From Candidatus Gastranaerophilales bacterium (lineage in GTDB: Bacteria; Cyanobacteriota; Vampirovibrionia; Gastranaerophilales; Gastranaerophilaceae), in the NCBI GenBank assembly GCA_944324475.1, contig CALUWK010000002.1, positions 33,387 through 97,386 of the forward strand: a DNA stretch of 64,000 bases, given 5' to 3'. Shown here piece by piece: positions 6,889 to 49,229 of the stretch. The notes beneath the pieces were generated by a model. It had not been told where the DNA came from and did no database searches. It saw nothing but the letters and a program-made list of their open reading frames with translations. Within the stretch, counting starts at the first letter, position 1. Each line of letters starts with the position of its first letter. The translations under genes were made by a program, and so were the position numbers.

Positions 6889-6950
6889 ATCATCACATAT
6901 AATGAAGTTTTATTAATATTTTTGATATTTAAATAGCAAAATGTAAAATA

Positions 6951-25763: not shown

Positions 25764-26161
25764 ATCCAAAATTTTCAGACAGAATTGTTTCGATTCTTGC
25801 ATATTTTACGTTCGGTATTTTCAGTATAATCTGGATTGTGTTTGCTAATCTTACAAAAAAAAATATGAGCTCTTTTTTAGTCTTTAATTTGTATCAAGCA
25901 ATTTTTATATCAGTGGTTCTAGCTATGGGTTCACTTATATATAGTATAGCTGTTAACATAGTAAGTATAATTCCTATAATCGGCAATTTTGTAAGATGGT
26001 TAGATGTAGTTTTTAATCAAACACCTATATATTTTACATTTACAATTTCCGGCTTATTTGTAACAATTTTAGTTTTTTATTTATCAATTTTATCTTTGCT
26101 TGGCAAAAAACCATACCTACCATTTGTTTCTGAAACAATATCGTCAAATTTTGGAGGATAA
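25760..26161 (+). CDS. small four-TM membrane protein (Tic20/DUF4870-like pattern)
   Basis: The ATGA overlap couples it to the TPR gene. RIVSILAYFTFG... and FLVFNLYQAIF resemble Tic20-like family signatures. Four hydrophobic helices. Confidence 0.45.
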   Translation: MNPKFSDRIVSILAYFTFGIFSIIWIVFANLTKKNMSSFLVFNLYQAIFISVVLAMGSLIYSIAVNIVSIIPIIGNFVRWLDVVFNQTPIYFTFTISGLFVTILVFYLSILSLLGKKPYLPFVSETISSNFGG

Positions 26162-26162
26162 T

Positions 26163-26573
26163 TTGAAAAAAAAGCTTTTTTTTCTTTTTAATATCTTATT
26201 GTATTCATACTGTTTTGCAGATGATTTAAATTTAGAAAATGAAGAACTCAAAAGCGCACTGAATCACAATAACTACGAACCAAACTATTTCACATTATTA
26301 GTTGGGTTATTTTTGGTTATTTTTCTAATATACATAACTGGATATGTATATCAAAAATTAACAAAAATAAAAATACATACGAAAGACGATGAAACAAATA
26401 AACCTATAATTCTTTCTACAACATCATTAGGACAAGGTAAAAATATACATATTATAAAAATTAACGATGAATATATGCTAATTGGTGCTACACAAAATAA
26501 TATTACATTTTTAAAAAATTTAGATAAAAAATTTTATATTGAAAGTTTGGAAAAAACAAATGAAAACAGTTAA
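26163..26573 (+). CDS. FliO-like flagellar export apparatus protein
   Basis: TTG start 5 nt after a GGAGG SD. A signal/TM segment, a second TM (LLVGLFLVIFLIYITGYVY), then KPIILSTTSLGQGKNIHIIKINDEYMLIGATQNNITFLKNL, which matches the FliO core pattern. Confidence 0.5.
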   Translation: MKKKLFFLFNILLYSYCFADDLNLENEELKSALNHNNYEPNYFTLLVGLFLVIFLIYITGYVYQKLTKIKIHTKDDETNKPIILSTTSLGQGKNIHIIKINDEYMLIGATQNNITFLKNLDKKFYIESLEKTNENS

Positions 26574-33866: not shown

Positions 33867-35492
33867 TTACTTTATATTTTGAAATTTTGAAGAAAAATAT
33901 TCCTCGCCTTTTTTTGTAATACTGTATTTATTGGAGCCCTCGCCGCTAAATAAATCAATATAACCATTTTTCATACATTCATCAATAATTGACATATCGG
34001 CAATTTTACCGGTTGCAGGAAAAATTTTAGAATTTATAAATTTCATTGAAAAATTATCTTCATGTAGCATATTTTTAATATAATATGCGCAAATAAGAAA
34101 TTCATCTTTCAATTCATTCACATTAAAACCGGAAAGAAATAAATGAAAATCAATAACAGGCCCTTCAATTTTTGCCCCACTTTGCACTTCATCTTCTTTT
34201 TGTTCAGCTACTTCCAATTTTTCAGTCAATTCCTTTGAAACAATTTCATTCTTATCAGAAAAGTTAATATTATTGTCATTTAAGGAAATTTCTTCACTAT
34301 CAAAAAAACCGTCGCCTTCAACCAATTCGCTTTTAGTCGACAAATGAGAATCATCGGCAATTTTTTTAGTGTCGTCAAACGCTTGTATATCTGAAATTAC
34401 TTCAATATCCTCATTTTCATTTGTTAAAACATTTTCCTCTAATGCTTCATTTAAAGCTGTTATTGTAATTTCACTCTTTTTTGAATTTTCAATATTTAAA
34501 TTATTCTCATAAGAAGAAAAAATATTATCTACCATTGATTGATTATTTTGATAATAATTTATTTTATCATTGGAATTTTTAATTTTAATTTCTTCAATTT
34601 TTAAATCTTTTTTAGTTTCATATTGAATACCGTTACTATCATCACCAAAAATCTCTAATTCTTTATTTGATTCTTTTCGATTATCGTCCTCATTAAACAA
34701 ATTGACAGAATCCATCTCACTTTCAATAAGTTTTAAAATATCATCAATATTGCCTAAATGATTAGCAGTATCATTTTGCTCTTTCACATTTTTATTTTCA
34801 TTATTTGAAATTTTATTATCACTATTTAATATATCATCCCCACAACTATCTTTAATTGAACTTACTTCTTCAATGTTTCCAACAAGATTTTTATCCAAAA
34901 TCTCAGATTTAATTTCAGCCTCATCTACAGATTCATTTTCCACTTGTTCGGGATGTGTTAATTCATCTAAACTCGCTTGGTAGACAACTTCTGTTTTATT
35001 ATCATTAACAACATTGTCATAATTTTCCTCAATACTTTCAGATTTGTTATCAGAAACATTTGATTCTTCAATCTGCACGGCTTCAATGTCGTCATCTTGA
35101 GAAGAAATTGAACAATCTTCATCTGCAGATTGATTTTCTGTTTGTTGAGAAAGTGTTAATTCATCTAAACTCGCTTGGTAGACAACTTCTGTTTTATTAT
35201 CATTAAAAACAGAAATATTATCATTTAATGATAGATTAGCTTGACCTTCACCAACTTCTTCAAGATTCATTACGGAAGATTTTTCACCAATCTCAGCTTT
35301 TTTTTCAAATTCATCGATTGATTTTAAATTTTCACTTTTTATTTCAATTTTTTTTATCTTTGAAATAAAATCATCACTAACACCAAAAATGTACGCAAAA
35401 TACATATCCATCTCTCTTTGCGTAACTATTTTATCATTAGATTCAAGTATAAATTCGCTATTTTGCGATTTTATTTTGATGTTATAATACAT
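33867..35492 (-). CDS. highly acidic hypothetical protein with an internal 66-aa repeat and a globular C-terminal domain
   Basis: 541-aa ORF. NDNKTEVVYQASLDELT occurs twice, 66 residues apart. The middle is D/E/N/S-rich, and the C-terminal ~100 aa are non-repetitive (FLICAYYIKNML...KYSITKKGEEYF). Confidence 0.65.
   Translation of the reverse strand: MYYNIKIKSQNSEFILESNDKIVTQREMDMYFAYIFGVSDDFISKIKKIEIKSENLKSIDEFEKKAEIGEKSSVMNLEEVGEGQANLSLNDNISVFNDNKTEVVYQASLDELTLSQQTENQSADEDCSISSQDDDIEAVQIEESNVSDNKSESIEENYDNVVNDNKTEVVYQASLDELTHPEQVENESVDEAEIKSEILDKNLVGNIEEVSSIKDSCGDDILNSDNKISNNENKNVKEQNDTANHLGNIDDILKLIESEMDSVNLFNEDDNRKESNKELEIFGDDSNGIQYETKKDLKIEEIKIKNSNDKINYYQNNQSMVDNIFSSYENNLNIENSKKSEITITALNEALEENVLTNENEDIEVISDIQAFDDTKKIADDSHLSTKSELVEGDGFFDSEEISLNDNNINFSDKNEIVSKELTEKLEVAEQKEDEVQSGAKIEGPVIDFHLFLSGFNVNELKDEFLICAYYIKNMLHEDNFSMKFINSKIFPATGKIADMSIIDECMKNGYIDLFSGEGSNKYSITKKGEEYFSSKFQNIK
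34956..35009 (-). repeat. intragenic direct repeat copy (about 54 nt perfect)
   Basis: GTGTTAATTCATCTAAACTCGCTTGGTAGACAACTTCTGTTTTATTATCATTAA occurs twice with a 198-nt (66-codon) period. Coordinates are hand-indexed, +/-2 nt. Confidence 0.8.
35153..35206 (-). repeat. intragenic direct repeat copy (about 54 nt perfect)
   Basis: Second copy of the same 54-mer. Coordinates are hand-indexed, +/-2 nt. Confidence 0.8.
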
Positions 35493-35867: not shown

Positions 35868-37391
35868 TTGTATAATTCAATCTATCCAATTAATATAAAT
35901 TACAGAAAACACAATCAATTTAATTCAACCAATGCAGAATCGGAAAAAACTGCAAATATTGATATTTCCGATAAAAACAAAAAGCGAAATACTTTTCCTA
36001 ATGGTGCAAAAGTTGCAATAGACTACACCAAGGGGCAAATAAATATTTCTCAAGTTTTAATGGATTTTAGAAACACCATTCTTGCTATCAATGCTCCTGA
36101 TGACGTCAGACAAGAAGTCTCAATATATCTAGATCTTGTAGATAAAGAAGCACACAAAGAAAATCCTTCAAAAGAGATAATTATTGCAAATTTAAAAAAT
36201 GCATCAAAAATTTCTGATGCATTTATAGCAAAAAGCCTAAATAAACCTTCTAACGTGGTTGAAGGCTGGATAGATGCTTTATTTTTGCAAAAAATAAATT
36301 TAAAAGCCGACCCAAGTGAAATCAACCCTGATTTCATGCTTGAATTTCCACAAAAAGCAAAAGACAGAATTGAAAAAGAAATAACTCCATCTTTTGTTTT
36401 AACACCAAGTGCTAAAACTCAAGATATAAAACCAAATGAAAATACAGAAAACACACAAAATGCTCACATTAGCGAACAAAGTTTTGCTAATACACCTTCT
36501 TCAACACAAGATATTTTTGATAATTATCAAGAACAAGATTTTGAAAATTTAGAAATTGAAAACGAAATTGAATTAAATGAAAATATAAGTGAAAAAACCG
36601 AAAAGACAATTCCAAATAGCCCTTTTGCTCCTTTTAATGATGCAGATATAAAAGCTAGAGAATTATACATATCAGCAAAAAATATGCCACAAACAAATCA
36701 GGGAGATACAGATGCGCTAAATTTTTTAAATGAAGCTTTAGGAATATTATCAAACAGTGAAACTTCAAATGAAAACATCAAAGCAGCAATTCACTTTGAA
36801 AGAGGAAAAATTTTTGACGACTATGATTATGTTGATTTTGCTCTTAAAGACTATTGGCAAGCAACAAAAACAGATGAACTCAATTTGAAATCACAAGCTT
36901 TTTTTCGTTCAGGCTCAATTTATGACGAATTTGGTGAATTTTCCCCTGCATTAAACAACTATTTATCTGCAGTTGCCTACAGTGGAGAAGCCGAAAATCC
37001 CAATATTCAAACAAAAGCATTAACGAGTATTGCCGGACTTTATGCTAAACAATTCGATTCTGAAAATACTGATGAATACACGGGACTTGCTTTTGACGTA
37101 GCACAAAACAGTAATGACGAAACTTTAATTGCAAACACCTATTCAAATGGAGCAGAAAATTACCAATACATTGGTGACAACGATAAAGCTTTAAATAGTT
37201 ATAAAAACGCATTAAAAATTTTTTCCGCCACTCAAGAAAGTTACGAACAAATTGCATATAACTATGAACAAGCTTCTTTGGTTATGGAAAAACTAGGCAA
37301 CAAAGCTAAGGCAAAGAAGCTTCAAGCAAAAGCAAATCTATATTATCAAAAAGCTCAACTTCAAGAGGGGCAACTGGAAGCAGCAAGTTAA
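35868..37391 (+). CDS. hypothetical protein with C-terminal TPR-like repeats
   Basis: 507-aa ORF (TTG start). The C-terminal third has TPR-like units (ALKDYWQATKTDELN, ALNNYLSAVAYSG, ALNSYKNALKIF). Confidence 0.6.
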   Translation: MYNSIYPININYRKHNQFNSTNAESEKTANIDISDKNKKRNTFPNGAKVAIDYTKGQINISQVLMDFRNTILAINAPDDVRQEVSIYLDLVDKEAHKENPSKEIIIANLKNASKISDAFIAKSLNKPSNVVEGWIDALFLQKINLKADPSEINPDFMLEFPQKAKDRIEKEITPSFVLTPSAKTQDIKPNENTENTQNAHISEQSFANTPSSTQDIFDNYQEQDFENLEIENEIELNENISEKTEKTIPNSPFAPFNDADIKARELYISAKNMPQTNQGDTDALNFLNEALGILSNSETSNENIKAAIHFERGKIFDDYDYVDFALKDYWQATKTDELNLKSQAFFRSGSIYDEFGEFSPALNNYLSAVAYSGEAENPNIQTKALTSIAGLYAKQFDSENTDEYTGLAFDVAQNSNDETLIANTYSNGAENYQYIGDNDKALNSYKNALKIFSATQESYEQIAYNYEQASLVMEKLGNKAKAKKLQAKANLYYQKAQLQEGQLEAAS

Positions 37392-38367
37392 TCTTTTTAT
37401 TTTGAACTTTTTTATCATACATCATAAGTTCAAGAATTTTTTGTTTTTTAAATTTAAGTTTTTTATTTGTTAAAGAAAATTTATCAATTAGAAAATTTAT
37501 TTTATTATAATAATTATCGTCAATTTTTTTCATTTCATAAGAAAGTTTACTTGCACATTTTATACCATAAGACACAGCTTCGCCATGAGATATTTTTTTA
37601 TATTTTAAATAAGTTTCAAAAGCATGGGCAAAGGTATGCCCAAAATTCAATATTTTTCTTAAATTATTTTCACTCTTATCCAAACTAACAACATTTGCTT
37701 TTAAAGAAACACAACAAGCTATTATTTTAACCATTTCATTTTTAACATCTTTTGTTTGGTTAACCGTTAAAATATCTTCTAAATTATAAAATTTTTCACA
37801 CTTGCAAGATTTTTCTATAAAGGCATATTTTAACACTTCGCCCAATCCGCACTTATAGTTATAATCATCCAAAGTATTCAAAAACATAGGATCAATTAAA
37901 ACTTTATCAGCCAAATAAAAAGTACCTATTAAATTTTTACCAAATGAAGTATTATAACCCGTTTTGCCACCAATAGAAGAATCACACATGGCAAGCAGAG
38001 TAGTTGGAATTTGGATGAATTTTACCCCCCTTAAAATTACACTTGCACAATATCCTGCAATATCTCCAACAACGCCTCCTCCAAAAGCAACAATGCAATC
38101 ATTTCTTTCTATTTTTTCTTCAAGGAGTTTATTTAAAATATAATTACAAGTTTTATAATTTTTATACTTCTCACCATCTTTTATAATAATAATTTTCTTA
38201 TCATTAAATTTATACAAAATCTCCGGATATAATTTTGCTATAGTTGAATTAGTTATAAAAAAACACTTATTAATATCTAAAAAATCATCAATGTTTTTAG
38301 ACAAGTCATTTTCTATTAAAATTTCACTTTTATTTACTTCAGAATTTTTTATATATATTTTTTCCAT
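37306..38367 (-). CDS. aroB: 3-dehydroquinate synthase
   Basis: GGGVVGDIAGYCAS, IQIPTTLLAMCDSSIGGKTG, GHTFAHAFE, HGEAVSYG. Confidence 0.95.
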   Translation of the reverse strand: MEKIYIKNSEVNKSEILIENDLSKNIDDFLDINKCFFITNSTIAKLYPEILYKFNDKKIIIIKDGEKYKNYKTCNYILNKLLEEKIERNDCIVAFGGGVVGDIAGYCASVILRGVKFIQIPTTLLAMCDSSIGGKTGYNTSFGKNLIGTFYLADKVLIDPMFLNTLDDYNYKCGLGEVLKYAFIEKSCKCEKFYNLEDILTVNQTKDVKNEMVKIIACCVSLKANVVSLDKSENNLRKILNFGHTFAHAFETYLKYKKISHGEAVSYGIKCASKLSYEMKKIDDNYYNKINFLIDKFSLTNKKLKFKKQKILELMMYDKKVQNKKINLLLPVAPLEVELFDNIDLLLLEASLP

Positions 38368-38870
38368 AATTTTTCACATATTTCTTTTGTAATTTCATAA
38401 ATATCTTTATTATCAGTTTGAACTACAATATCTGCCATATTATAAAATTTCTCTCTATCATTCAAAATTTTTTTTATTTCATCTTTAGGATCATCTACCA
38501 ACAATAATGGTCTACTTTTATCATTCTTAATTCTTTCAAATATAGAATTACAACTTGTTTTAAGATAAATTGTTTTAATATTCCCACAAAAAAGTATTTC
38601 TCTATTATTAGAATTCAATACGACACCACCACCTGTAGAAATAATGAACTCCTCATTTTTTACAATATCAACCAAAATTTCATTTTCTTTTTCTCTAAAA
38701 TTATTTTCCCCATATATATCAAAATATTTTTTTATAGTCAACTTATATTTATTTTCAAAAATTTCATCAGTTTCAAAAAGTTTTATATTTGTTATTTTAT
38801 TTAATTGTTTTGCAATCGTTGATTTTCCGCTACCCATCATTCCGATTAACGCAACTTTATTATATTCCAT
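38349..38870 (-). CDS. aroK: shikimate kinase
   Basis: P-loop LIGMMGSGKSTIAK, and STGGGVV. Lies between aroC and aroB. Confidence 0.9.
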   Translation of the reverse strand: MEYNKVALIGMMGSGKSTIAKQLNKITNIKLFETDEIFENKYKLTIKKYFDIYGENNFREKENEILVDIVKNEEFIISTGGGVVLNSNNREILFCGNIKTIYLKTSCNSIFERIKNDKSRPLLLVDDPKDEIKKILNDREKFYNMADIVVQTDNKDIYEITKEICEKLWKKYI

Positions 38871-39984
38871 TTATCCTCTTTTGATAATTTTTAAAAGCTA
38901 AATCTATATCATTTTTACAATCATGACCAAACTTTTCAAAAAAAGCATCCAATATAATAATTGCAGCCATATTCCTTGCAACCACACCGCATGCTTCAAC
39001 AGCACAACAATCAGTTCTTTCGAAATGCGCCTTGGTTTTTATATGAGTTTTTATCTCAACGCTATTAAGTGCTTTTTTCATTGTGGGAATCGGCTTCATA
39101 GCAATTTTAAGCACAATATCTTCACCATTAGACATTCCGCCTTCAATTCCGCCCGAATTATTTGTTTTATGAAATATTTTTCCATTTTCTTCAAAAATTT
39201 CATCATGCGAGCTTGAACCAGAATATTTAGCATAATCCTTTCCAAGTCCTATTTCCACTGATTTTATCGCAGGGATAGACATCATAGCCTGAGCTAATTT
39301 TCCATCCAACCTTTTATCCCAATGAACAAAACTACCAAGCCCTGCGGGGGGATTTTTAATAACAATTTTAATGATCCCACCCAAAGAATCGCCTTCTTTT
39401 TGATATTTTTCAACAAAACTTTTAAAATCCTTTTTATTTTCGCAATCCTTAATAGAAATAATTTCTGATTCAAAAGAAATATTATAATATTTTAAAATAT
39501 TTTGACATATCGCACCAACCGCAACTCTTGTAGCTGTCTCTCTTGCACTTGAGCGCTCAAGAACGTATCTTATATCATCAAATCCATATTTAAAAACTCC
39601 TGCCAAATCAGCATGTGCAGGCCTAAATTTTGCTATTCTTTTTTCAATAATTTTCTTTTCAATTTCACATTTTAAATTTTCATCAATTTTACTAAAATCA
39701 ATTTTTTCAACGCTCATTGGATAAACCCAATTTTGCCAATCCTTATTTTCAATCTCAATAGAAATAGGACTTGCTGTGGTTACAGAAAAACGCACACCGG
39801 AATGCACTTTAATTTTATCTTTTTCAATTTTCATTCTGCCGCCACGCCCGTATCCTTGTTGACGACAAGCAAGCTCAGAATTTATAAAAGTAAAATCAAG
39901 CTCATAGCCAAACGGAATTCCTTCAATTATAGCATTTAATTTTTCCCCGTGCGATTCTCCCGATGTTAAAAAACGTATTGCCAT
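38860..39984 (-). CDS. aroC: chorismate synthase
   Basis: LTSGESHG, GRGGRMKIE, RSSARETATRVA, GGIEGGMSNG. Confidence 0.95.
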   Translation of the reverse strand: MAIRFLTSGESHGEKLNAIIEGIPFGYELDFTFINSELACRQQGYGRGGRMKIEKDKIKVHSGVRFSVTTASPISIEIENKDWQNWVYPMSVEKIDFSKIDENLKCEIEKKIIEKRIAKFRPAHADLAGVFKYGFDDIRYVLERSSARETATRVAVGAICQNILKYYNISFESEIISIKDCENKKDFKSFVEKYQKEGDSLGGIIKIVIKNPPAGLGSFVHWDKRLDGKLAQAMMSIPAIKSVEIGLGKDYAKYSGSSSHDEIFEENGKIFHKTNNSGGIEGGMSNGEDIVLKIAMKPIPTMKKALNSVEIKTHIKTKAHFERTDCCAVEACGVVARNMAAIIILDAFFEKFGHDCKNDIDLAFKNYQKRINGI

Positions 39985-39993
39985 CTTATCCCC

Positions 39994-40731
39994 TTAAATA
40001 ACAATCCAAGGCTTTTCTTCTTGAGCAATTATAACTTCAACTTTTGTTTTTGCAATTAAACCCTGAATAAGAGGTAATACTGGAAGTTCAGATTCAAAAT
40101 GCCCAATATCAGCAACAGCAAAACCTTCAACCTCGAGTGCTTTGTGAAATTTAATATCGCCTGTTATATATAAATCTATATCATAATTTTTTAGTTTATC
40201 AATAAAACTCCCGCCCGCACCTGCACACACTGCAACATTTTTAACGGTATCAATATTATTCGGATTAATAAGTTTTAAATGCTCCAAATTTAATGCTTGT
40301 TTTATATTTTTTATCATCTGATCTAAAGCAAATTCATCTTTCAAATGTGAAATTTTAATATAATCGTCCACTGTAATAAGATTTTGTAAACCTAAAACTC
40401 CACACAATGCATCAGTTGTTGAACCATAAGTCTTATCAAGATTCGTGTGGGCACAATAAACACAAATATTATTTCTTATTGCTTCTGCTATAAGTGAATT
40501 TTCGATTTTTTTAATAGAATTAAATATCAAAGGATGATGAGTAATAATTAAATCACAATCATTTGTTACTGCTTGTTCTAAAACATCTCTGGTAAAAGAA
40601 AGAGCAACTAAAACTTTATTTGTATAATCATGTTCCAAATTTATCTGCCAACCTGAATTATCCCAAGATTCTGCAAGTTCTAAAGAAGCATACTTTTCAA
40701 TTTTTGAAATGATATAGTCTGTTTTAATCAC
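39994..40731 (-). CDS. Nif3-family dinuclear metal centre protein (GTP cyclohydrolase 1 type 2 homolog)
   Basis: ESWDNSGWQI, ITHHPLIF, HTNLD, and a C-terminal GHFESE. I prefer the GTG at 40731, preceded by GGAGG, over the ORF-track ATG at 40758. Confidence 0.85.
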   Translation of the reverse strand: MIKTDYIISKIEKYASLELAESWDNSGWQINLEHDYTNKVLVALSFTRDVLEQAVTNDCDLIITHHPLIFNSIKKIENSLIAEAIRNNICVYCAHTNLDKTYGSTTDALCGVLGLQNLITVDDYIKISHLKDEFALDQMIKNIKQALNLEHLKLINPNNIDTVKNVAVCAGAGGSFIDKLKNYDIDLYITGDIKFHKALEVEGFAVADIGHFESELPVLPLIQGLIAKTKVEVIIAQEEKPWIVI

Positions 40732-41899
40732 AAACAACCTCCAAAATTTTTCTAGCAATGTTGTCTTTCGTGTCTAATTCCATATTTATAATTTTACCAC
40801 TTTTTTCTATAATTGTAACTTTATTTTCATCAGTATTTAACGCAATTTTTACCTCGTTTGCAACTATATAATCAAGATTTTTATTTTTTAATTTGTTTTT
40901 AGCTTGAGCTACACAATCTTCATCAGCCAAGCAAAAGCCGACTATTTTTTGATTTTGTCTTTTATTTTGAGCTATTTTCTTGACAACATCCTGATTTTTC
41001 ACAAACTCAAGCGCAAACTCATGTTGCATATTTTCTTTTATTATCTTTTTTTCTGATTTATTTTTTACCTTAAAATCACAAACTGCAGCTGCCATAATTA
41101 AAACATCAAAATCGTTATTTTTAATAGCTTCAAGCATTTCGTCTGCCGAGTTTACATTAATTGATTTATATGGCACATTTTCAAGTTCGACTGCAGAAAT
41201 AGCTAAAACATCAAACCCCATTCTATATGCCCACTTACAGAGCGACTTACCCATTTTTCCCGATGAAAAATTACTTATACAACGAACACTATCTATTGAT
41301 TCTTTAGTTCCACCAAGAGTCACTATAACTTTTTTCCCATTATTAATTTTATTTTGAAAAAGATTTTTTAAAGTTTTTTCAAAAATCAATTCAATTTTTG
41401 CAAGTCTTCCACAACCAACATCCCCACAAGCAAGAAAACCATCCTCAGGGTCAACAAAATCTACATTTTGATTTTTGAGTTTTTTGATATTTTCTTGAAT
41501 AAACGGATTATTCCACATATTTTTATTCATTGCAGGAGCCATTAAAATTGGTTTTTTAGTTGAAAGATAAGCACAAAAAATACTACTTAAAAGGTTATCG
41601 GCAATTCCTTGAGCGCATTTTGAAAGAGTATTTGCGCTAATAGGTGCTACAACAAAAATATCCGCCCATTCAACAAGATTTATATGTTGAACATTATTCC
41701 TTGGGCTAAATTGACTATAATAAACTTCATTTTCCGACAATGTCTCCAATACAAGTGTAGAAACAAAATTAAGAGCATTTTCTGTTACAACAACTTTCAC
41801 ATTATAGCCATTTTTTTTATACAATCTTACTAATTCATATATTTTATACGAAGCAATAGATGATGTTATACCCACTAATATATTTTTTAAATTGTTCAT
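40724..41899 (-). CDS. coaBC: bifunctional phosphopantothenoylcysteine decarboxylase / phosphopantothenate-cysteine ligase
   Basis: N-terminal flavoprotein domain (ILVGITSSIASYK, PAMNKNMW) and a C-terminal CoaB domain (ISNFSSGKMG, AAAVCDF). Confidence 0.95.
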   Translation of the reverse strand: MNNLKNILVGITSSIASYKIYELVRLYKKNGYNVKVVVTENALNFVSTLVLETLSENEVYYSQFSPRNNVQHINLVEWADIFVVAPISANTLSKCAQGIADNLLSSIFCAYLSTKKPILMAPAMNKNMWNNPFIQENIKKLKNQNVDFVDPEDGFLACGDVGCGRLAKIELIFEKTLKNLFQNKINNGKKVIVTLGGTKESIDSVRCISNFSSGKMGKSLCKWAYRMGFDVLAISAVELENVPYKSINVNSADEMLEAIKNNDFDVLIMAAAVCDFKVKNKSEKKIIKENMQHEFALEFVKNQDVVKKIAQNKRQNQKIVGFCLADEDCVAQAKNKLKNKNLDYIVANEVKIALNTDENKVTIIEKSGKIINMELDTKDNIARKILEVVCD

Positions 41900-42465
41900 T
41901 TTGTTTCCTTATTGTATATTTTAATTAATTCATCAACTGCCTCATCAACAACTTTATTTTCAATTACATAATGAAATTTATTTGCATTGTTCAACTCATC
42001 TTCAGCTATCATAAGCCTTTTTTTGATTGATTCTTCACTTTCACTGTGACGACCTCTCAAACGTTTTTCTAATTCATCAAAACTGGGAGGCTTAATAAAA
42101 ATTGTTACAGCTTCAGGGCATTTACTCATTACTTGCAGTGCACCTTGAAGCTCAATTTCAAGAAGAACACTTTTACCTTCTTTCAATTTTTCTTCTACAA
42201 ATTTTTTACTGGTACCGTAAAAATTACCACTATAGCAAGCATATTCCAAAAAAGCATTTTCTTTAATCAATTTTTCAAATTCATCTTTTGAAATAAAAAA
42301 ATAATGCATTCCGTTTATTTCACCATCTCTAGGCGCCCTTGTCGTATTTGAAATTGAATATACAATATTGTTATCAACCTTTTTAAAAAAATCAGCCAAT
42401 ATTGTCCCCTTGCCAACACCTGAAGGGCCTGTAAATATTATAAGTTTTGCTTTATTTTTTGTCAT
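41896..42465 (-). CDS. gmk: guanylate kinase
   Basis: P-loop FTGPSGVGKGT, TTRAPRDGE, YGT. Confidence 0.95.
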   Translation of the reverse strand: MTKNKAKLIIFTGPSGVGKGTILADFFKKVDNNIVYSISNTTRAPRDGEINGMHYFFISKDEFEKLIKENAFLEYACYSGNFYGTSKKFVEEKLKEGKSVLLEIELQGALQVMSKCPEAVTIFIKPPSFDELEKRLRGRHSESEESIKKRLMIAEDELNNANKFHYVIENKVVDEAVDELIKIYNKETK

Positions 42466-42517
42466 ATTTAACCAAAATACACTAATTTATCTAATTATAT
42501 AATAAAAATTGATTTAA

Positions 42518-42549
42518 TTAAAAAAAAGGATGATAATTTTATCATCCTT
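42518..42549 (-). terminator. rho-independent terminator after the pilin-like gene
   Basis: Stem AAGGATGAT / ATCATCCTT with a 6-nt loop. On the minus strand it is followed by a T8-10 run. Confidence 0.7.
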
Positions 42550-42588
42550 ACCAAAACACAAAATAATATGAAAATATGTTAAACTTTT

Positions 42589-43491
42589 TTATTCCCAATT
42601 TTTATTTAAGATGTCCTTATCGCAGCCTTTTTTAAAGTTAGAATATGTATCATAATTACTTCCTGGCCCCATTGCACTTATTACCGGCGGATATTCATTT
42701 ATGGTTGGACCAAAAATATATTTTCCATTTGAATATATAACAGGTCTAATTGTAACTTTGCAAGGGCCATAAACATAATAACAATAATAATCCCAATAAT
42801 AAGCACTGCTACACCTCTCATATTCGGTAACTCTTGCACTAACGTAATCAACTACACCTGGTCTATATTTTTTGCAATTACCGCTTGATGTTTTAAAATA
42901 TCCCTTTTGGCAACCATCCATATAGCCTTCAAATTGCTCTAGACCAGATTGCGAACTTGAATTAGATGATGAATTAGGACAATCACCTCCTATACCACAT
43001 TGATAACATTCAGATGCGCCTATACCTGACCATTCACCACTGTTGCAACTTTTGCAAGTGACCGAACCAACAGTATCTTGCCAGTAACCTGCCTGACAAT
43101 CCTTGCATGCTGCCTGCCCTTTTAGATTTTGATATTGACCCTTAGGGCAAACGATACAATTAATTTGTTTTATTTGATTTTGATAATATCCTTCTGGACA
43201 CTGAATATAGTTCATTGCAGCTTCATGATCAACGTAAGCTCCAATCGGAGAATCTTTGCAAAACATCTTACCTACCTCATCTTGGTATTGTCCCTTTGGG
43301 CAAGGCTTACATGTTTTTATACCATCAAAATAATAGCCCATATTACACACTTTAAAATTAGAATTTGATGAAACAACATTAATTTTTGATATTTTTTTTG
43401 AAACAATAGGGCTAAAAGCCGCAAATAAACAACTAACAGTAATCAAGCTAATCATTAATTCAATTAATGAAAATGCATTAAAATATTTCAT
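42589..43491 (-). CDS. prepilin-type N-terminal cleavage/methylation-domain protein fused to cysteine-rich CxxCPxGxYQ repeats
   Basis: Class III signal peptide MKYFNA/FSLIELMISLITVSCLFAAF (Glu at +5). It is followed by CKPCPKGQYQ, CPEGYYQ, CIVCPKGQYQ, CKDCQAGYWQ and CKSCNSGEW. I count about 20 Cys in the mature part, and the C-terminus is aromatic-rich. Confidence 0.8.
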   Translation of the reverse strand: MKYFNAFSLIELMISLITVSCLFAAFSPIVSKKISKINVVSSNSNFKVCNMGYYFDGIKTCKPCPKGQYQDEVGKMFCKDSPIGAYVDHEAAMNYIQCPEGYYQNQIKQINCIVCPKGQYQNLKGQAACKDCQAGYWQDTVGSVTCKSCNSGEWSGIGASECYQCGIGGDCPNSSSNSSSQSGLEQFEGYMDGCQKGYFKTSSGNCKKYRPGVVDYVSARVTEYERCSSAYYWDYYCYYVYGPCKVTIRPVIYSNGKYIFGPTINEYPPVISAMGPGSNYDTYSNFKKGCDKDILNKNWE

Positions 43492-43542
43492 TTTTTAATT
43501 CCTATTTATTGCAAACGAAACACGCCTTACAAAAGGCGGATA

Positions 43543-43635
43543 AATTACAACTTAGCCACAAATGTAATTTTGTAGTATAGTTATATGTGTAATTGTTGTA
43601 TTATATCGATACCATTATTATATACATAAATTACA
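43543..43635. promoter_or_regulatory. four copies of the heptamer AATTACA/TGTAATT in the divergent intergenic region (candidate operator array)
   Basis: AATTACA at 43543-43549 and 43629-43635, both within the 11-mer ATAAATTACAA. TGTAATT at 43563-43569 and 43588-43594. The first pair forms the 8-bp inverted repeat AAATTACA-N13-TGTAATTT. Confidence 0.4.
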
Positions 43636-43672
43636 ATATTTGTCAATATATATAAATACACACGGGTAATTT

Positions 43673-43963
43673 ATGTCTACGCAAGGTCAAAGACTAAAAA
43701 AAATCAGAAACGAACTGAATCTGACTCAAGCACAACTAGGCTTGGCTTTGGGTATTTCAAAACAGTTTTATTCTAATATTGAAACAGATAGGACTTTACT
43801 GAATAATGAAAAATTAGTATTGCTATATAAAGACTATAATGTAAATTTAAATTACCTTCTGGGCGGAGTTTTGCCTATGTTTAACGATGATAAAAAAACA
43901 ACTAATGATTTTGAAGAAAAAGTAAAAAAAATATTAATTCAAGAAGGTTTAATAAAAAATTAA
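43673..43963 (+). CDS. XRE-family helix-turn-helix transcriptional regulator
   Basis: LKKIRNELNLTQAQLGLALGISKQFYSNIETDR is a typical Cro/CI-type HTH. 96 aa. Confidence 0.85.
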   Translation: MSTQGQRLKKIRNELNLTQAQLGLALGISKQFYSNIETDRTLLNNEKLVLLYKDYNVNLNYLLGGVLPMFNDDKKTTNDFEEKVKKILIQEGLIKN

Positions 43964-43979
43964 AAACTTTTACTAATTT

Positions 43980-44001
43980 AAAGACCCCTCAAGGGGTCTT
44001 T
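43980..44001. terminator. hairpin between convergent XRE and rpoD genes (bidirectional terminator)
   Basis: 9-bp stem AAAGACCCC / GGGGTCTTT with a 4-nt loop and A/T runs on both sides. Confidence 0.65.
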
Positions 44002-44005
44002 AAAT

Positions 44006-45076
44006 TTAAACTTCAACATATTCTTTTAAACGCTTTGAACGATTAGGATGTCTCAACTTTCTTAGCGCCTTAGCCTCAATTTGTCTGATGCGTTCACGAG
44101 TGACACCAAATAACTGACCAACTTCTTCAAGTGTTCTTTGTCTGCCGTCATCCATGCCAAAACGCAATCTTAAAACATCCCTTTCTCGAGCCGAAAGTGA
44201 GCTTAAAACTTCAGCTAAATCTTCTCTTAAAAGTTCATGAGCAACTGTTTTTACAGGAGCATCAGCATCTTTATCTTCAATAAAATCACCCAATCTTGAA
44301 TCTTCTTCTTTTCCAATAGGAGTTTCAAGAGACAAAGGTTCTTGAGCAACTTTTATTATTTCTCTTAACTTATTAATAGAAATTCCCATTTCTGCAGACA
44401 ATTCTTCTTCAGATGGCTTTCTTGCAAGCTCTTGAGCCAATTTTCTTGTGACCTTCTTAAGTTTATTAATTGTCTCAACCATATGAACAGGAATTCTAAT
44501 TGTTCTGGCTTGATCAGCTATCGCTCTTGTTATTGCTTGTCTAATCCACCAAGTTGCATAGGTAGAAAACTTATAACCTCTTTCATGATCAAACTTTTCG
44601 GCCGCTCTGATTAAACCAAGATTTCCTTCTTGAATTAAATCCAAAAAAAGCATGCCTCGTCCTACATATTTTTTTGCTATAGAAACAACAAGTCTTAAAT
44701 TAGCTTGAACAAGCTTTCTTTTTGCAACAGCGCCGCTATTGCCACCTGCTACAATTTTTCTTGCTAAATCTATTTCTTCATCGGCAGTTAAAAGTTTAAT
44801 TCTGCCAATTTCACGCAAATACATTCTTACAGGATCGTCAACAGAAACTCCTCTTGGAACAGTTAAATCATTCTCCATTTCGCCTTCTGATTCTTGTTGA
44901 TCAAAAAAGCTAATAGTGCTTGAATTTTCAACTGCACTAACACCCTGAGTTCTCATAATGTTAGAAATATTATCAGTTTCAAGACCCGTACCTTCAAAGT
45001 ACTCGTCTTCTTCTATCATTTCTGATTTATCCATAACATTAATTACAGAACTGTCGGAATTTCTTTTTCTACTCAT
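44006..45076 (-). CDS. rpoD: primary-type RNA polymerase sigma factor (sigma-70 family, RpoD/SigA)
   Basis: Regions 1.2 to 4.2 are present: [77 protein letters not shown]. The gene lies downstream of dnaG. Confidence 0.95.
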
Positions 45077-45094
45077 TAATTATCTCCAATCTGT

Positions 45095-46969
45095 CTATTT
45101 GTTTTTTAACTCTTGAAAAATTTTTGTTGAAATAACTAATTTTTCTTCTTCTGTCAAGTTATTGTTTTTTAGCATTTTTTTCAACTCATTTTTCCTATAT
45201 TGTTGCTTCAAATTTTCTAATCTTTCAAACGTTTCATCTACTGCTTGCATAAAATCGTCTTGTGACAAGTTGTTAAATTCATGCGATGAAAAAATATTAT
45301 CTGAAATTTTCTTTTGTATATGCTGTTCATTATAAAACCCTAAAAAAAGTTTTTTTGCTAGTTCGTCAACATTATTTACTTCCAAAAATTTTTTGTCAAT
45401 GCTTTCAAGTATCTTCGAATTTTCCATATCTTGCGAACTATAACCTGATAATTTCTTTTGCAAATATATTTTTTTATCTTCTGTATTTGCCGCAAATGCC
45501 AATTTTATCAAGTTCTGCTCCATTAATTCATATAAATTTGACGAGGCTCTATTTGATAATTTTATTTTGTCAATTAAATTTTCATTCTCAACTTTTAAAA
45601 TACCAAATTCATCTTGTTGCTTGTTTATAATTTGAGTTTTTAAAATTGTTTCTGCAACATCTAACTTAAAAGCTGCTGCTTTTATATAATCGTCCAAAAT
45701 TACAGAATTTTTAATTTGATACAAAATATCAGCAATTTGTATGACAAAATGACTTTTTTCTTGTGGAGTTAAATTACTTCTTATCTCCTTATAAATTTGA
45801 TTTAACTGATAATCCAACAATAATGGAGCATCATTTATCTTTTTTAAATATTCTTCCCCACCAAACTCCCTTATAAATTCATCAGGATCCTTACCTTGAA
45901 TTTCTGATACAACCCTAATTTCACAAACATTTTCTTCACTGCTTCTAAAATTAGAATCATATTGTTTTATATCTCCTAATGCTAAAAAAATATTTTTAAT
46001 TACTTCAGCACCATGTTCTATCGCTTTTTTACCTGCACTATCTGTATCAAAAGCAAGATAAATTTTTCTTGAAGGACTATATCTGCTAATAAGCTTGATA
46101 TGTTGAGCTGTAAGTGCCGTTCCGCAAGTCGCAACTGCATTTTCAACTCCACCAAGATGTGCCGATATTACATCAAAATAACCTTCCATAAAAATCACTG
46201 AATCACTTTTTTTAATGGCGTCTTTCGCTCTGTTTAAACCAAATAGAACAGCACTTTTGTTATAAATAACACTTTCAGGAGAATTTATATATTTGGGCAT
46301 TTGACCTTCAATAATTGCTCTTGCTCCAAAAGCAATTATATTAGAATTAATATCTTTAATTGGAATTATAATTCTATTTTTAAAACGATCTATAAATGTT
46401 CCTTCTTTTTCGTAAACAAGACCCGCTTTATTTAATTCTTCAACAGTAAAACCAAGCTTGGTTAAATAAGCTTTAAGTTCAAAATTTCCCTTTGGAGCAA
46501 GTCCTAAAGAAAATTTGGAAATTGCAACTTCGTTTATTCCCCTTTTTTTAAGATATTCAAGAGCCTTTTGATTTGATTCAAGATTATTTTTGAAAAATTT
46601 ACATGCTTGTTCCATAGCGTCATATAAACGTTCTTTTTCAGCCTTATGAAAAGAAGCATTCTTCAAATTTCTTTTAGGTAACTCTATTCCTAAGTTTAAA
46701 GCTTGTTCTTCAATTACTTCATTAAATGATTGATTATTAATTTTCATTAAAAAAGTAAATACATCTCCGCCTTCTCCACAACCAAAACATTTAAATATTT
46801 GTTTATCTGGAGTAACAACAAAAGAGGGTGTCTTTTCATTATGAAATGGACATAGACCTTGGAAATTTCTTCCCGATTTTTTAAGAACAACATATTTAGA
46901 TATAACATCTACAATATCTAAACTATTTTTAATTTGCTCGACTGCTTGCTGATAAGAAACTTCCGACAT
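45095..46969 (-). CDS. dnaG: DNA primase
   Basis: Zinc finger CPFHNEKTPSF...CFGCGEGGDVF, RNA polymerase core, and TOPRIM (IFMEGYFDVIS, DTDSAGKKA). Confidence 0.95.
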   Translation of the reverse strand: MSEVSYQQAVEQIKNSLDIVDVISKYVVLKKSGRNFQGLCPFHNEKTPSFVVTPDKQIFKCFGCGEGGDVFTFLMKINNQSFNEVIEEQALNLGIELPKRNLKNASFHKAEKERLYDAMEQACKFFKNNLESNQKALEYLKKRGINEVAISKFSLGLAPKGNFELKAYLTKLGFTVEELNKAGLVYEKEGTFIDRFKNRIIIPIKDINSNIIAFGARAIIEGQMPKYINSPESVIYNKSAVLFGLNRAKDAIKKSDSVIFMEGYFDVISAHLGGVENAVATCGTALTAQHIKLISRYSPSRKIYLAFDTDSAGKKAIEHGAEVIKNIFLALGDIKQYDSNFRSSEENVCEIRVVSEIQGKDPDEFIREFGGEEYLKKINDAPLLLDYQLNQIYKEIRSNLTPQEKSHFVIQIADILYQIKNSVILDDYIKAAAFKLDVAETILKTQIINKQQDEFGILKVENENLIDKIKLSNRASSNLYELMEQNLIKLAFAANTEDKKIYLQKKLSGYSSQDMENSKILESIDKKFLEVNNVDELAKKLFLGFYNEQHIQKKISDNIFSSHEFNNLSQDDFMQAVDETFERLENLKQQYRKNELKKMLKNNNLTEEEKLVISTKIFQELKNK

Positions 46970-47098
46970 TTTCTAATGTAAACTCTATTTTGTATTCTGT
47001 CTTTTTTTAACACCAAAATAACATATTTTAAAGAGTGTTTTGATAAATAATTTAAAAAAGTTTACAACCTCTTTTATTTATGATTAAATTTCTTATTA

Positions 47099-48043
47099 TT
47101 GATAGCATGGCTTGTTAAAATGAAAGAGTTTTTTTCTAATGATATAGTCTTATACTTGGAAGAAAAAACAAAGTCAAAATGCGATTTTGTTTCTTTATTT
47201 AACGACATAGAAACAAAATTTAAAAAAAATGAGCTTTGCTATTTATTTAATTTCATCCTAAAAAACAAACACGAAATAGCACTATTAAACGAAACAATTA
47301 GAAGAATCAACAAATTTAAATTCATTGATAATTTAAATTCTTTAATCGATTTTATCTTAATTCAAAATACAAACAATGATTTTTTAAATCTCAAGGTTCT
47401 CGCAATTAAAACAATTTCCGGCTACAAAAATAAAATTGCAGTACAACCACTTTTGTTTTGTTTGAATGATAAAAATTCAAATTACAAAATAAAACTAGCT
47501 TCAGCAGAAGCCTTAGGAAAAATCGGAGACAAAAATGCCTTTGAATCTTTAAAAAACGTTGTAAATAACGAAGAAGAAAAATCAACCTACGTTAAAGAAT
47601 CTGCAATAACAGCTCTTGGCATGCTAAAAGACAGCAGGGCTTTAGATGTTTTTGACTCTATAATTAACACAAAACAAATGTTTTTAGATAAATTTTTATA
47701 TTTAAAAGAGAAAATAATTGAAGCAATTTCAAATTTTGATACCACAAAAGACAAAAAAGCTATTGAAATTTTAAAAAAAGCGCTAAATGATACATCTGCA
47801 AAAATAAGAATTGCAGCCATTGAAACAATAATGAATTCAGACAATCAAGAAAGTTATGAACTTATATATGATTGCTTAAAATATGATTCAGATATTGAAG
47901 TTAAAAAAAATGCATTAACCGCTCTATACAACATTAGCAACAGAAAAATTCTGGATGAAGTTATAAACAATGATTTTGAAAATGAATTAAAAAATTACGC
48001 AAAAAAACTATTAAATATATATGAGGACAATAATGAACAATGA
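47099..48043 (+). CDS. HEAT-repeat (PBS-lyase-type) protein
   Basis: Repeated units such as KLASAEALGKIGDKNAFESL, ESAITALGMLKDSRALDVF, IRIAAIETIMNSDNQES and VKKNALTALYNIS. The start could be TTG 47099 or ATG 47120. Confidence 0.7.
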   Translation: MIAWLVKMKEFFSNDIVLYLEEKTKSKCDFVSLFNDIETKFKKNELCYLFNFILKNKHEIALLNETIRRINKFKFIDNLNSLIDFILIQNTNNDFLNLKVLAIKTISGYKNKIAVQPLLFCLNDKNSNYKIKLASAEALGKIGDKNAFESLKNVVNNEEEKSTYVKESAITALGMLKDSRALDVFDSIINTKQMFLDKFLYLKEKIIEAISNFDTTKDKKAIEILKKALNDTSAKIRIAAIETIMNSDNQESYELIYDCLKYDSDIEVKKNALTALYNISNRKILDEVINNDFENELKNYAKKLLNIYEDNNEQ

Positions 48044-48674
48044 TGCCGTAATGCTACTTTCAGGAGGTCTTGATAGCTTAGTTTCTCTAGATATAGCAAT
48101 TAAAAAACTTAATATTAAATTAGCTCTTATATTCGACTACGGACAATATGCATATTTTGAAGAAAAGCAAGCTGCGATGAATATAGCAAAACACTATAAT
48201 ATTAATCTAAAATTTATAAATTTATCATTCATGAAAGAATTGTGCGATTTTCAAAATAAAAATTTAGATGAATTCGAGTCTGTTTGGATACCAAACAGAA
48301 ATGGTTTATTTCTAAATATCGCAGCTTCATATTGCGATAAATATAACTATAATTGTATAATTTTCGGAGCTAATAAAGAAGAAGGAATACAATTTCCAGA
48401 TAATTCAGAAAAATTTGTTAAAAAATGCAATGAAGTCCTTGAATTATCAACGCTTTGTAAACCAAAAATTTTTGCTCCTTGTTTACAATTTGATAAAATT
48501 CAAATAGTAAATTATGCTATTGATAACAATGTACCTTTAAAATTTTTAAAAAGCTGTTATGATACTTCAAAAAACACCGGCAAAAAACATTGCGGCAAAT
48601 GCATGTCTTGTAAATTGCTCAAAAATGCTATTAAAAAAAGCAAAAAGCCTGAACTTATAGGGGAAATATTTTAA
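48021..48674 (+). CDS. queC: QueC-like PP-loop ATPase (7-cyano-7-deazaguanine synthase family)
   Basis: AVMLLSGGLDSLVS PP-loop, and the C-terminal zinc cluster C-x12-CGKCMSC typical of QueC. Confidence 0.7.
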   Translation: MRTIMNNDAVMLLSGGLDSLVSLDIAIKKLNIKLALIFDYGQYAYFEEKQAAMNIAKHYNINLKFINLSFMKELCDFQNKNLDEFESVWIPNRNGLFLNIAASYCDKYNYNCIIFGANKEEGIQFPDNSEKFVKKCNEVLELSTLCKPKIFAPCLQFDKIQIVNYAIDNNVPLKFLKSCYDTSKNTGKKHCGKCMSCKLLKNAIKKSKKPELIGEIF

Positions 48675-49229
48675 ATGGAAACACTTTTTATCGAAAACGA
48701 AATAAAATATACAGGTAAAGAACTTGCCCCATTGTGGATTTATAAAAATTTTAATATTTTAGGAGATGCAATAGTTGCTTTTGTAGGCGAAGTAGATGTA
48801 AAACTTAATGAAATGGTGGATATTGAAGATGTTATTAACAACGAACCAATTTATTCTAAAAAAATGTTAAATTTTATTATTGAATGTTTTAATTTTACAT
48901 TAGAACAAATGGTTTGGGCTCAAAGACTTTTTGTATCAATTATAAAAGAAACTATTGAAGAATACGGTTTTTTTGTTTTAAGAAAAGGAGATGATTTGTT
49001 TTTTGACAACAGAAAGTTATCGGTCTCTATTGCAACTAAATCGATTAATTCTTGCCTTATACACACTGCATTAAATATAATAAAAGAAGGCGCACCAATA
49101 AAAGCGTCAGATTTAAATGAAATAGGAATTAAGGATTATAAAAAGTTTGCCCTAGAAATTTTATCAAAATTTAAACAAGAAACAGAAAGTATAAAAAAAG
49201 CAACATACAAGGTAAGAGGTTTAGTTTGA
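48675..49229 (+). CDS. hypothetical protein, DUF366-like
   Basis: 184-aa ORF starting 1 nt after the QueC-like stop. GDAIVAFVGEVDV...MVDIEDV...MLNFIIECF resembles what I recall of the DUF366 family. Recognition is from memory only. Confidence 0.4.
   Translation: METLFIENEIKYTGKELAPLWIYKNFNILGDAIVAFVGEVDVKLNEMVDIEDVINNEPIYSKKMLNFIIECFNFTLEQMVWAQRLFVSIIKETIEEYGFFVLRKGDDLFFDNRKLSVSIATKSINSCLIHTALNIIKEGAPIKASDLNEIGIKDYKKFALEILSKFKQETESIKKATYKVRGLV

Follow-up and report, generated by a model that had tools for sequence, protein, structure and literature searches.

The 64,000-nucleotide stretch of Candidatus Gastranaerophilales DNA analysed here (the window, with a G+C content of 29%) carries, at 42589-43491 on the minus strand, a gene for a 300-residue protein that joins a prepilin-type N-terminal helix to a cysteine-rich ectodomain. 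The gene lies between rpoD and gmk, with a divergently transcribed gene for an XRE-family regulator directly upstream. It is one copy of a large, unnamed paralogous family of at least 80 genes that is restricted to gut Gastranaerophilales, and its interest lies mainly in the family-level architecture behind the single gene. The features of the gene and of its control region are listed below, each with the evidence on which it is placed.

42589-43491, minus strand: complete open reading frame for a pilin-like, cysteine-rich modular surface protein of 300 aa, protein P0001 (list of open reading frames)
43474-43491, minus strand: leader MKYFNA, residues 1-6, with predicted prepilin-peptidase cleavage after Ala6 (sequence and family statistics)
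43387-43473, minus strand: hydrophobic helix of the alpha1-N type, residues 7-35, the conserved 'carrier' of the family (invariant columns, AlphaFold, weak N_methyl and ComGC matches)
43348-43386, minus strand: Ser/Asn-rich linker, residues 36-48, containing the 5' boundary of the cassette at 43380/43381 (pLDDT below 50 at residues 38-41; blastn breakpoint)
42979-43347, minus strand: predicted stalk of five to six Ephrin-receptor-like/TNFR-like cysteine repeats, residues 49-171, 14 cysteines (Pfam, AlphaFold, fold matches)
42937-42978, minus strand: Ser/Asn-rich linker PNSSSNSSSQSGLE, residues 172-185 (sequence; pLDDT below 50 at residues 178-191)
42592-42936, minus strand: orphan Tyr-rich C-terminal domain, residues 186-300, 6 cysteines, presumed ligand-binding head (homology search, model)
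42576-43380, minus strand: replaceable ectodomain cassette, residues 38-300 plus the stop codon and 13 nt (blastn against locus L022)
43673-43963, plus strand: divergent XRE-family helix-turn-helix regulator of 96 aa (HTH_19, 47.1 bits, E=2.3e-12; HTH_3, 45.5 bits, E=7.6e-12)
43617-43646, minus strand: predicted sigma-70 promoter, a perfect TTGACA-18 nt-TATAAT with 12/12 consensus positions (promoter scan)
43542-43674, no strand assigned: five TGTAATT(T)/AAATTACA motifs in alternating orientation, candidate XRE operators (inverted and direct repeats)
43523-43538, minus strand: terminator-like hairpin CGCCTTTTGTAAGGCG with a T-rich tail, located in the 5' leader some 30 nt ahead of the start codon and just before the ribosome-binding site (terminator scan)
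42526-42549, minus strand: predicted intrinsic terminator, a 10-bp stem followed by TTTTTTAATT (terminator scan)

The open reading frame is a real gene under purifying selection. Its protein is identical on six independent contigs from several samples, where the order of neighbours is always DnaG, RpoD, the divergent XRE gene, the gene itself, Gmk and CoaBC. A sister species keeps this synteny and carries an ortholog at 70.6-72% identity, which makes the gene the most diverged of its neighbourhood (70.6% compared with 80-97% for the neighbours). The dN/dS ratio of 0.086 against the 72% ortholog indicates strong purifying selection and disfavours a spurious open reading frame. The ortholog retains the C-terminal domain and all cysteines except C227 and C237, which are both absent; such joint loss is the behaviour expected of a disulfide pair. 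Elsewhere in the window, a six-frame motif scan found no second open reading frame with a pilin motif, and an Rfam scan of the whole window gave zero matches.

Prepilin-type helix and cysteine-repeat ectodomain

The preliminary description of this gene, made from the letters of the DNA, had proposed a prepilin signal composed of the leader MKYFNA, Phe+1, Glu+5 and a hydrophobic helix. This assignment holds on the motif and on family-wide conservation, which have to carry it because the match to the Pfam model N_methyl falls below threshold. The N-terminus reads MKYFNA/FSLIELMISLITVSCLFAAFSPIV, with cleavage predicted at the slash, and places Phe at +1, Glu at +5, Ser at +14 and Pro at +22. Across 58 family members the columns F7, S8, L9, E11, L12, I14, S15, L16, I17, S20 and P28 are invariant. 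The -1 position is occupied by Ala 61 times and by Gly 16 times, thus by one or the other in 77/77 genes, and the leaders are short and basic, with medians of 11 aa in length and +2 in net charge. N_methyl is matched by 23/58 members at E<=0.001, and the NCBIfam models give the window protein weak ComGC/ComGD matches that cover the N-terminal helix alone.

Beyond this helix, all the repeat modules given in the preliminary description could be located by regular expression: CKPCPKGQYQ at residue 61, CPEGYYQ at 98, CIVCPKGQYQ at 112, CKDCQAGYWQ at 129 and CKSCNSGEWS at 146, with a sixth, looser module (CNMGYYF) at residue 49. The count of about 20 cysteines in the mature part was equally close, since the protein has 21, of which C21 lies in the hydrophobic helix and 20 in the ectodomain, and the Tyr-rich character of the C-terminal part is borne out by the stretch AYYWDYYCYYVYGPC at residues 230-244. 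The resemblance to ephrin-receptor-like (GCC2/GCC3) and TNFR-like domains that had been noted for these repeats was recovered with HMMER against Pfam, where Ephrin_rec_like (PF07699) matches over three stretches with 66.4 bits (E=1.9e-18, cutoff 23.1). The NCD3G, TNFR_ELAPOR1 and TNFR_c6 models match below threshold. The top sequence match in the PDB is the Chlamydomonas mastigoneme protein Mst1 (E=3.9e-19).

The predicted fold tells the same story. In an AlphaFold model computed from a 53-sequence alignment, a helix of 27 residues (9-35) is followed by the linker and then by the repeats, and residues 50-165 form a string of short paired strands at pLDDT 92-98. Foldseek against the PDB ranks Mst1 first (E=3e-9), followed by ELAPOR1, 4-1BB/TNFR, thyroglobulin, CaSR and Eph receptors, all of them eukaryotic cysteine-repeat proteins. 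By both sequence and predicted fold, the repeats are genuine members of the Ephrin_rec_like/TNFR-like type. The C-terminal part is of another kind. When residues 172-300 were searched exhaustively with HMMER against 1.84 billion representatives of clusters at 50% identity, the one match other than the protein itself was weak and repetitive. The number of ectodomain cysteines is even in 43/59 family members (p=3e-4); this bias is a signature expected of disulfide-bonded exported proteins and supports the predicted disulfides. As modelled, the window protein combines a pilin-like carrier helix with foreign modules and is in this respect no ordinary minor pilin or pseudopilin.

The gene family, its regulators and the ectodomain cassette

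The search for paralogs and orthologs suggested in the preliminary description took the form of a pattern scan of 185,579 species-representative genomes, which confirmed 88 loci. The best 80 of these 88 span 14 genomes, with at least 17 copies in one of them, and 79 of the 80 lie in metagenome-assembled genomes labelled Candidatus Gastranaerophilales or Melainabacteria, the remaining one (L027) being titled 'uncultured bacterium'. Sample names point to goat, roe deer and rabbit guts and to humans, the BRZ_*/E02 names being those that we take to denote human gut. A search with the single sequence returned 14 relatives, eight of them cysteine-rich with the N-terminus (A/G)FSL(I/V)ELMISLI..S.I.AAF.P.I.KKL. 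A profile search returned 89 proteins at E<=0.001, mostly family members; no family member carries a name, and the names that do occur are those of a few matches that are eukaryotic or labelled 'hypothetical protein'. The family is thus no common annotated pilin class, and literature searches found no paper on it, on pilin-like genes paired with XRE genes or on the exchange of cassettes in Melainabacteria.

Complete members have 391-937 aa and 22-73 cysteines, and the median ectodomain has 528 aa with 55 cysteines (9.7%); the smallest cysteine-rich members are the window protein and its orthologs in two species. The modules are varied. Among 58 members, Ephrin_rec_like occurs in 25, Lcl_C (DUF1566, presumably the same as IPR011460) in 19, TNFR_ELAPOR1 in 18 and Gly_rich_2 in 11, the Lcl_C motif lying C-terminally according to the A3 consensus. 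One member, P0045, matches the Giardia VSP model PF03302. Short members carry a phage tail-collar domain: at L087 (5989-6360) and in P0094, from a rabbit-gut genome, the family N-terminus precedes a small tail-collar-like domain (123-127 aa, no cysteines). The carrier helix is thus used with quite unrelated modules.

The description of the regulator as dedicated and divergent applies far beyond the window. The HTH_19 and HTH_3 scores of the XRE protein both exceed their cutoffs, and orthologs at 66-83% identity occupy the same position in L009, L022, L041, L059 and L081. Upstream DNA of 900 nt or more was available for 73 family genes, and 56 of these have a divergent XRE-like open reading frame directly upstream, at a median gap of 148 nt, so that the pairing can be regarded as a rule of the family. 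Conversely, 57/66 XRE-like open reading frames in 770 kb of loci occupy this divergent upstream position, and HTH_3 is found in 56/57 of the upstream frames, the window's included. Loci L032, L071 and L086 have, besides the divergent frame, a second small XRE-like one upstream on the same strand as the family gene.

The region between the two divergent genes (181 nt in the window) contains several control features. The perfect promoter is kept at the orthologous sites of L009, L022, L041 and L059, and largely in L081. Of the five TGTAATT-type motifs, one sits in the promoter spacer and one spans the XRE start codon. Within 189 nt here lie 4/31 of the window's copies of TGTAATT (Poisson P ~3e-6), and the 11-mer TTGTAATTTAT occurs twice in 64 kb, both times in this intergenic region. 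The motifs recur at the orthologous sites of four other species, and the pattern raises the suggestion that every paralog has private operators of this kind. The gene itself seems to be transcribed alone, as the preliminary description had it, from the promoter at 43646-43617 to its own terminator, a hairpin with a T-run at 42549-42526. In the leader, the terminator-like hairpin has an equivalent of differing sequence (CCTTT...AAAGG with a T-run) in L009, L022, L041 and L059, and a second hairpin, CTACAAA...TTTGTGG at about 43555-43575 on the minus strand of this ~120-nt leader, also recurs at orthologous sites. RNAalifold on the five orthologous leaders gave little covariation and misaligned the terminator-like hairpin. 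The leader hairpins may act as a transcription attenuator.

The comparison of orthologous sites shows where the gene changes. Locus L022 (BRZ_DL__bin42) has the same DnaG-RpoD-XRE-gene-Gmk-CoaBC synteny, with RpoD 96.6% and Gmk 92% identical to those of the window, but its gene encodes an unrelated ectodomain in a 507-aa protein with 67 cysteines. At the DNA level the two loci align over 43381-48997 and 36956-42575 and nowhere in between, which defines 42576-43380, from codon 38 to 13 nt past the stop codon, as the variable segment. The same break recurs between other genomes (L013/L080, L011/L040), where similarity takes in the flanks, the XRE gene, the region between the genes and the gene's first 90-115 nt and then ends; in L022 and L009, for which both full flanks were retrieved, it returns right past the stop codon. 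Paralogs within a genome show the reverse pattern. Their DNA is 72-87% identical over a stretch that starts at about +50 nt (at -10 nt in one pair) and runs in the direction of the gene's 3' end, in 3/4 pairs beyond the stop codon, whereas their upstream regions and XRE genes are unrelated. N-terminal coding DNA is also more similar within genomes (0.71-0.82) than between them (0.64).

Regulator and ectodomain accordingly have separate histories. The closest XRE proteins are orthologs in different genomes beside unrelated ectodomains, and the closest ectodomains lie in the same genome beside dissimilar XRE proteins. The two similarities are uncorrelated (Mantel r=0.02, p=0.39), and co-duplication of XRE gene and ectodomain was rejected on this ground. 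The comparisons show that the XRE gene, the promoter and the helix together make up stable orthologous sites at which the ectodomain has been exchanged within genomes and replaced between species. Silent cassettes lacking a promoter were absent from the window, and the loci held few extra copies, so an archive of the pilE/pilS type is not supported. Since, in addition, the window's cassette is identical in six samples, exchange is documented on an evolutionary scale and not as rapid switching.

Contig ends deserve mention alongside the cassette boundary. A contig end cuts 19/77 family genes, and in 13/77 it falls 31-63 residues past the predicted cleavage site, which is the boundary between conserved and variable parts (L041, L044, L047, L050, L058-L061, L063, L065, L067, L072 and L079). 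Either a shared 5' repeat or population heterogeneity of the cassettes could account for these breaks. Their frequency at the boundary implies that the family is systematically under-assembled in metagenomes.

Filament genes and competing explanations

A type IV filament assembly machine is encoded in the same window, 27 kb from the gene, in agreement with the earlier remark that the gene lies far from the assembly genes. Its components are the following.

10150-12042, plus strand: secretin (Pfam)
12054-14360, plus strand: ATPase with MshEN and T2SSE domains, 768 aa, including an MshE-type c-di-GMP-binding domain (Pfam)
14360-15571, plus strand: T2SSF platform protein (Pfam)

NCBIfam is ambiguous for this set, which scores as PilQ/PilB/PilC and as GspD/E/F, in every case below the equivalog cutoffs. 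No gene for a pilin, for PilM/N/O or for a peptidase adjoins it, and nearby open reading frames (406 aa at 8905-10125, 328 aa and 186 aa) matched no Pfam or NCBIfam model significantly. A further block, at 24.7-32.7 kb, was considered as a set of pilus genes and rejected, since its products are TPR proteins, FliO, NeuB, a HAD hydrolase, aspartate kinase, TilS and HPRT. The FliO-like frame in it (26100-26573, plus strand) overlaps its neighbours and sits among the TPR, NeuB and HAD-hydrolase genes and not in a flagellar operon.

Other surface functions may be encoded in the window as well. A ShlB/POTRA transporter (15727-17505, minus strand) forms a two-partner secretion pair with an exoprotein of 1173 aa that has a TPS (haemagglutination activity) domain (17863-21384, plus strand), a candidate second adhesin system beside the filament genes; in the sister species, a TPS protein is encoded elsewhere (L007). 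A 564-aa membrane glycosyltransferase of the PMT/ArnT family (62087-63781, plus strand) could modify lipid A or Ser/Thr-rich surface proteins, and the pilin-like protein has Ser/Asn-rich linkers. Open reading frames of 541, 621, 334, 319, 328 and 186 aa (33867-35492, minus; 21544-23409, minus; 1086-3031, plus; 5902-7511, plus) have no Pfam match at E<=0.01 and are apparently lineage-specific unknowns.

We consider it moderately likely that the protein is a modular pilin-like adhesin in which an anchor, a disulfide-bonded stalk and a head are combined and whose expression is controlled by its own XRE protein. The Lcl_C domains of 19 family members and the precedent of modular pilins are in keeping with an adhesin-like role. 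We propose that a class III signal inserts the protein in the inner membrane, where a prepilin peptidase would cleave it after Ala6 and the ectodomain would be oxidised to about ten disulfides. The filament machine could then present it, most likely in low copy or at the filament tip, with the repeat stalk projecting the C-terminal head as an adhesin. Binding of the XRE protein to the TGTAATT repeats over the strong promoter would gate expression of this single gene, the leader hairpin possibly adding attenuation, and cassette turnover might diversify binding or antigenic specificity in the gut. A further-reaching version of this proposal, which we regard as quite unlikely, is a multi-locus variable surface coat. 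Dozens of expression sites, each with a private XRE gene, a strong promoter, a possible attenuator and a prepilin anchor, would receive disulfide-rich, eukaryote-like cassettes by recombination, XRE cross-talk could limit expression to a single copy or a few in each cell, and filaments would display the products. Programmed or mutually exclusive expression of the family copies is pure conjecture.

Several results weigh against the filament-borne adhesin. The N_methyl (PF07963) match of the window protein reaches 18.2 bits (E=0.0019) where the cutoff is 21.2. Its -1 residue is Ala and not the canonical Gly; Ala at this position is atypical, yet it is known in Com pilins, and the weak ComGC match of the window protein fits this. 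The pilin fold, with an alpha1 helix of ~50 residues on a C-terminal beta-sheet head, is missing: the AlphaFold model has no pilin head (alpha1-C/beta-sheet) and the 183 Foldseek matches in the PDB include no pilin structure, so incorporation into a filament is not assured. The C-terminal ~120 residues are modelled with low confidence (pLDDT below 50 for most of them), which makes the binding role of the head a guess. With regard to private operators, repeats of this type stood out statistically in some other paralogs only: an exact 8-mer test on paralog upstream regions found at least three copies in 12/51 and p<=0.01 in 4/51. The machinery cannot be assigned to either a type IV pilus or type II secretion and is unlinked to the gene. 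The window showed no gene for Dsb or VKOR proteins, and the organism is an anaerobic fermenter, a kind of bacterium that often has no oxidative folding systems. Likewise, the GxGDxK motif of prepilin peptidases was found neither in the window nor in 10-kb extensions on each side nor in ~0.8 Mb of related loci. For a relative, Gastranaerophilus termiticola, pilA, B, C, T and D have been reported (PMC5877343).

The main rival, which we find rather unlikely, is that the protein is a substrate of the class III signal pathway that is never polymerised. The helix would then serve as an export signal and anchor, or as a signal for cleavage and release, and the ectodomain would be periplasmic or surface-located outside any filament. 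The archaeal bindosome, in which sugar-binding proteins carry prepilin-type signals, is a precedent for such substrates. This possibility agrees well with a modelled helix that ends at residue 35 with no pilin head, with family genes that are scattered and unlinked to machinery, and with members that are large and, at up to 17 or more per genome, far outnumber the minor pilins of a typical pilus. It explains the invariant residues less well. In type IVa pilins, positions +1, +5, +14 and +22 are those important to processing and to the way in which alpha1-N packs in filaments; an invariant buried Glu at +5 would be superfluous in a plain membrane anchor, as would the small residue at +14 and the Pro at +22 that are invariant here. 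Moreover, a secretin-containing machine is present, and modular pilins with bulky grafted modules do enter pili (PMC8179133).

If the protein were instead an ordinary type II pseudopilin or core minor pilin of the GspH-K or PilV/W/X type, its pilin-type N-terminus would be accounted for, as would machinery genes that score equally as GspD/E/F. Yet the gene lies between rpoD and gmk and in no operon with the machinery, the protein has no pilin fold, at least 17 scattered copies occur in a genome, each with its own regulator, and past the N-terminal helix the protein matches none of the pseudopilin models of Pfam or NCBIfam. We find this hardly credible. Of the earlier proposal that the gene encodes a pseudopilin or minor pilin displaying a cysteine module, the pilin-type N-terminus and the Ephrin_rec_like repeats therefore stand, while the missing pilin head speaks against an ordinary pilin. 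Least probable of all is a toxin-antitoxin, phage or defence module formed by the XRE protein and its partner. The regulator bears a weak resemblance to antitoxins of the HipB/Y4mF type, to phage repressors and to HTH proteins associated with defence, but the partner has no PHROG or PADLOC match and carries an export signal and some ten predicted disulfides. In addition, the two genes are divergent and not co-transcribed, and their locus between rpoD and gmk has no mobile-element genes.

The origin of the repeats raises a separate alternative, a recent transfer from a eukaryote to a bacterium that yielded a mimic of an ephrin receptor, TNFR or ELAPOR domain engaging a host ligand; that the module might mimic or bind such a ligand had been suggested in the preliminary description. 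Ephrin_rec_like is deemed eukaryotic and its rare bacterial cases have been attributed to horizontal transfer (PMC6993872), the nearest matches outside the family look eukaryotic (P0008, P0011-P0013, P0077, P0087 and P0092), and so are all relatives with solved structures. However, identity to eukaryotic repeats is 25-38% and extends over parts of the protein, and the repeats are stalk-type throughout, with no Eph/TNFR ligand-binding domain. A recent transfer is also disfavoured by composition, which is fully host-like (GC3 of 22% in the gene against 17-20% in its neighbours). Dozens of diverged paralogs carry the repeats, in 14 genomes that come from the guts of humans, goats, deer and rabbits, which points to an old acquisition or a convergent expansion. 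We consider recent transfer very unlikely.

Comparison with known systems and significance

Gastranaerophilales are uncultured, widespread gut relatives of cyanobacteria, and among their exposed proteins the present family would be the most diversified set. Each gene would be linked to its own regulator and to cassette exchange, and adhesion, immune evasion and phage-receptor variation in these bacteria become directly testable. If the variable-coat version of our proposal were true, such a coat would correspond, in a bacterium, to the VSP variation of Giardia or the VSG variation of trypanosomes, with display on a type IV filament.

The closest functional parallel among bacterial proteins is provided by modular pilins, such as PilB (with a vWA module) and PilC (with a lectin module) of Streptococcus sanguinis (Raynaud et al. 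2021, PMC8179133). The survey in that paper gives 264 modular architectures, among them IPR011460, a module that this family presumably shares as Lcl_C. The window protein conforms to the definition of a modular pilin in that it joins an N-terminal IPR012902-type motif, sub-threshold here, to a non-pilus domain. It differs in that modular pilins have a complete small pilin module, whereas the window protein has alpha1-N only, and our findings would thus extend the 'modular pilin' idea to a head-less carrier helix. In the accessible text of the survey (PMC8179133), Ephrin_rec_like (IPR011641) is not among the architectures. Massive paralogy, private XRE regulators and the exchange of modules as cassettes, all of them features of this family, have not been described for modular pilins.

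The ectodomain, in turn, has its likeness in eukaryotes. Mst1 (8tx1/8wa2), ELAPOR1 (9vqm), 4-1BB and Eph receptors share the pattern C-x2-C-P-x-G-x-Y-Q and, like the window repeats as modelled, form an extended run of short paired strands. The window version is bacterial, however, is carried on a prepilin-type signal and comes with no kinase, Ig or ligand-binding domain. Ephrin_rec_like has been reported to be an invention of eukaryotes that turns up sporadically in bacteria (PMC6993872), which makes its expansion across a whole family in a bacterial order unusual; the present family is a large bacterial expansion of a repeat type considered eukaryotic.

Conserved carriers with exchangeable or unrelated exposed parts also occur in systems that resemble this family by analogy only. 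The pilE/pilS system of Neisseria and the CXXC VSPs of Giardia both combine a conserved anchor with a variable exposed part. As in these systems, the family retains a conserved N-terminal part while its exposed part is exchanged by recombination within genomes, and the VSPs share with it cysteine-rich ectodomains, to the point that P0045 matches their Pfam model. The differences are considerable. Here, no silent cassettes and no recombinase or invertase were found nearby, the cassette is the same in all six samples, and the individual XRE control of the family genes is without counterpart in either system. Planctomycetes DUF1559 proteins and archaeal class III substrates are likewise large expansions specific to a lineage, with many paralogs that have pilin-like N-termini on non-pilin domains. 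The family of Gastranaerophilales differs from both in its lineage, its ectodomains, its paired regulators and the way its cassettes behave.

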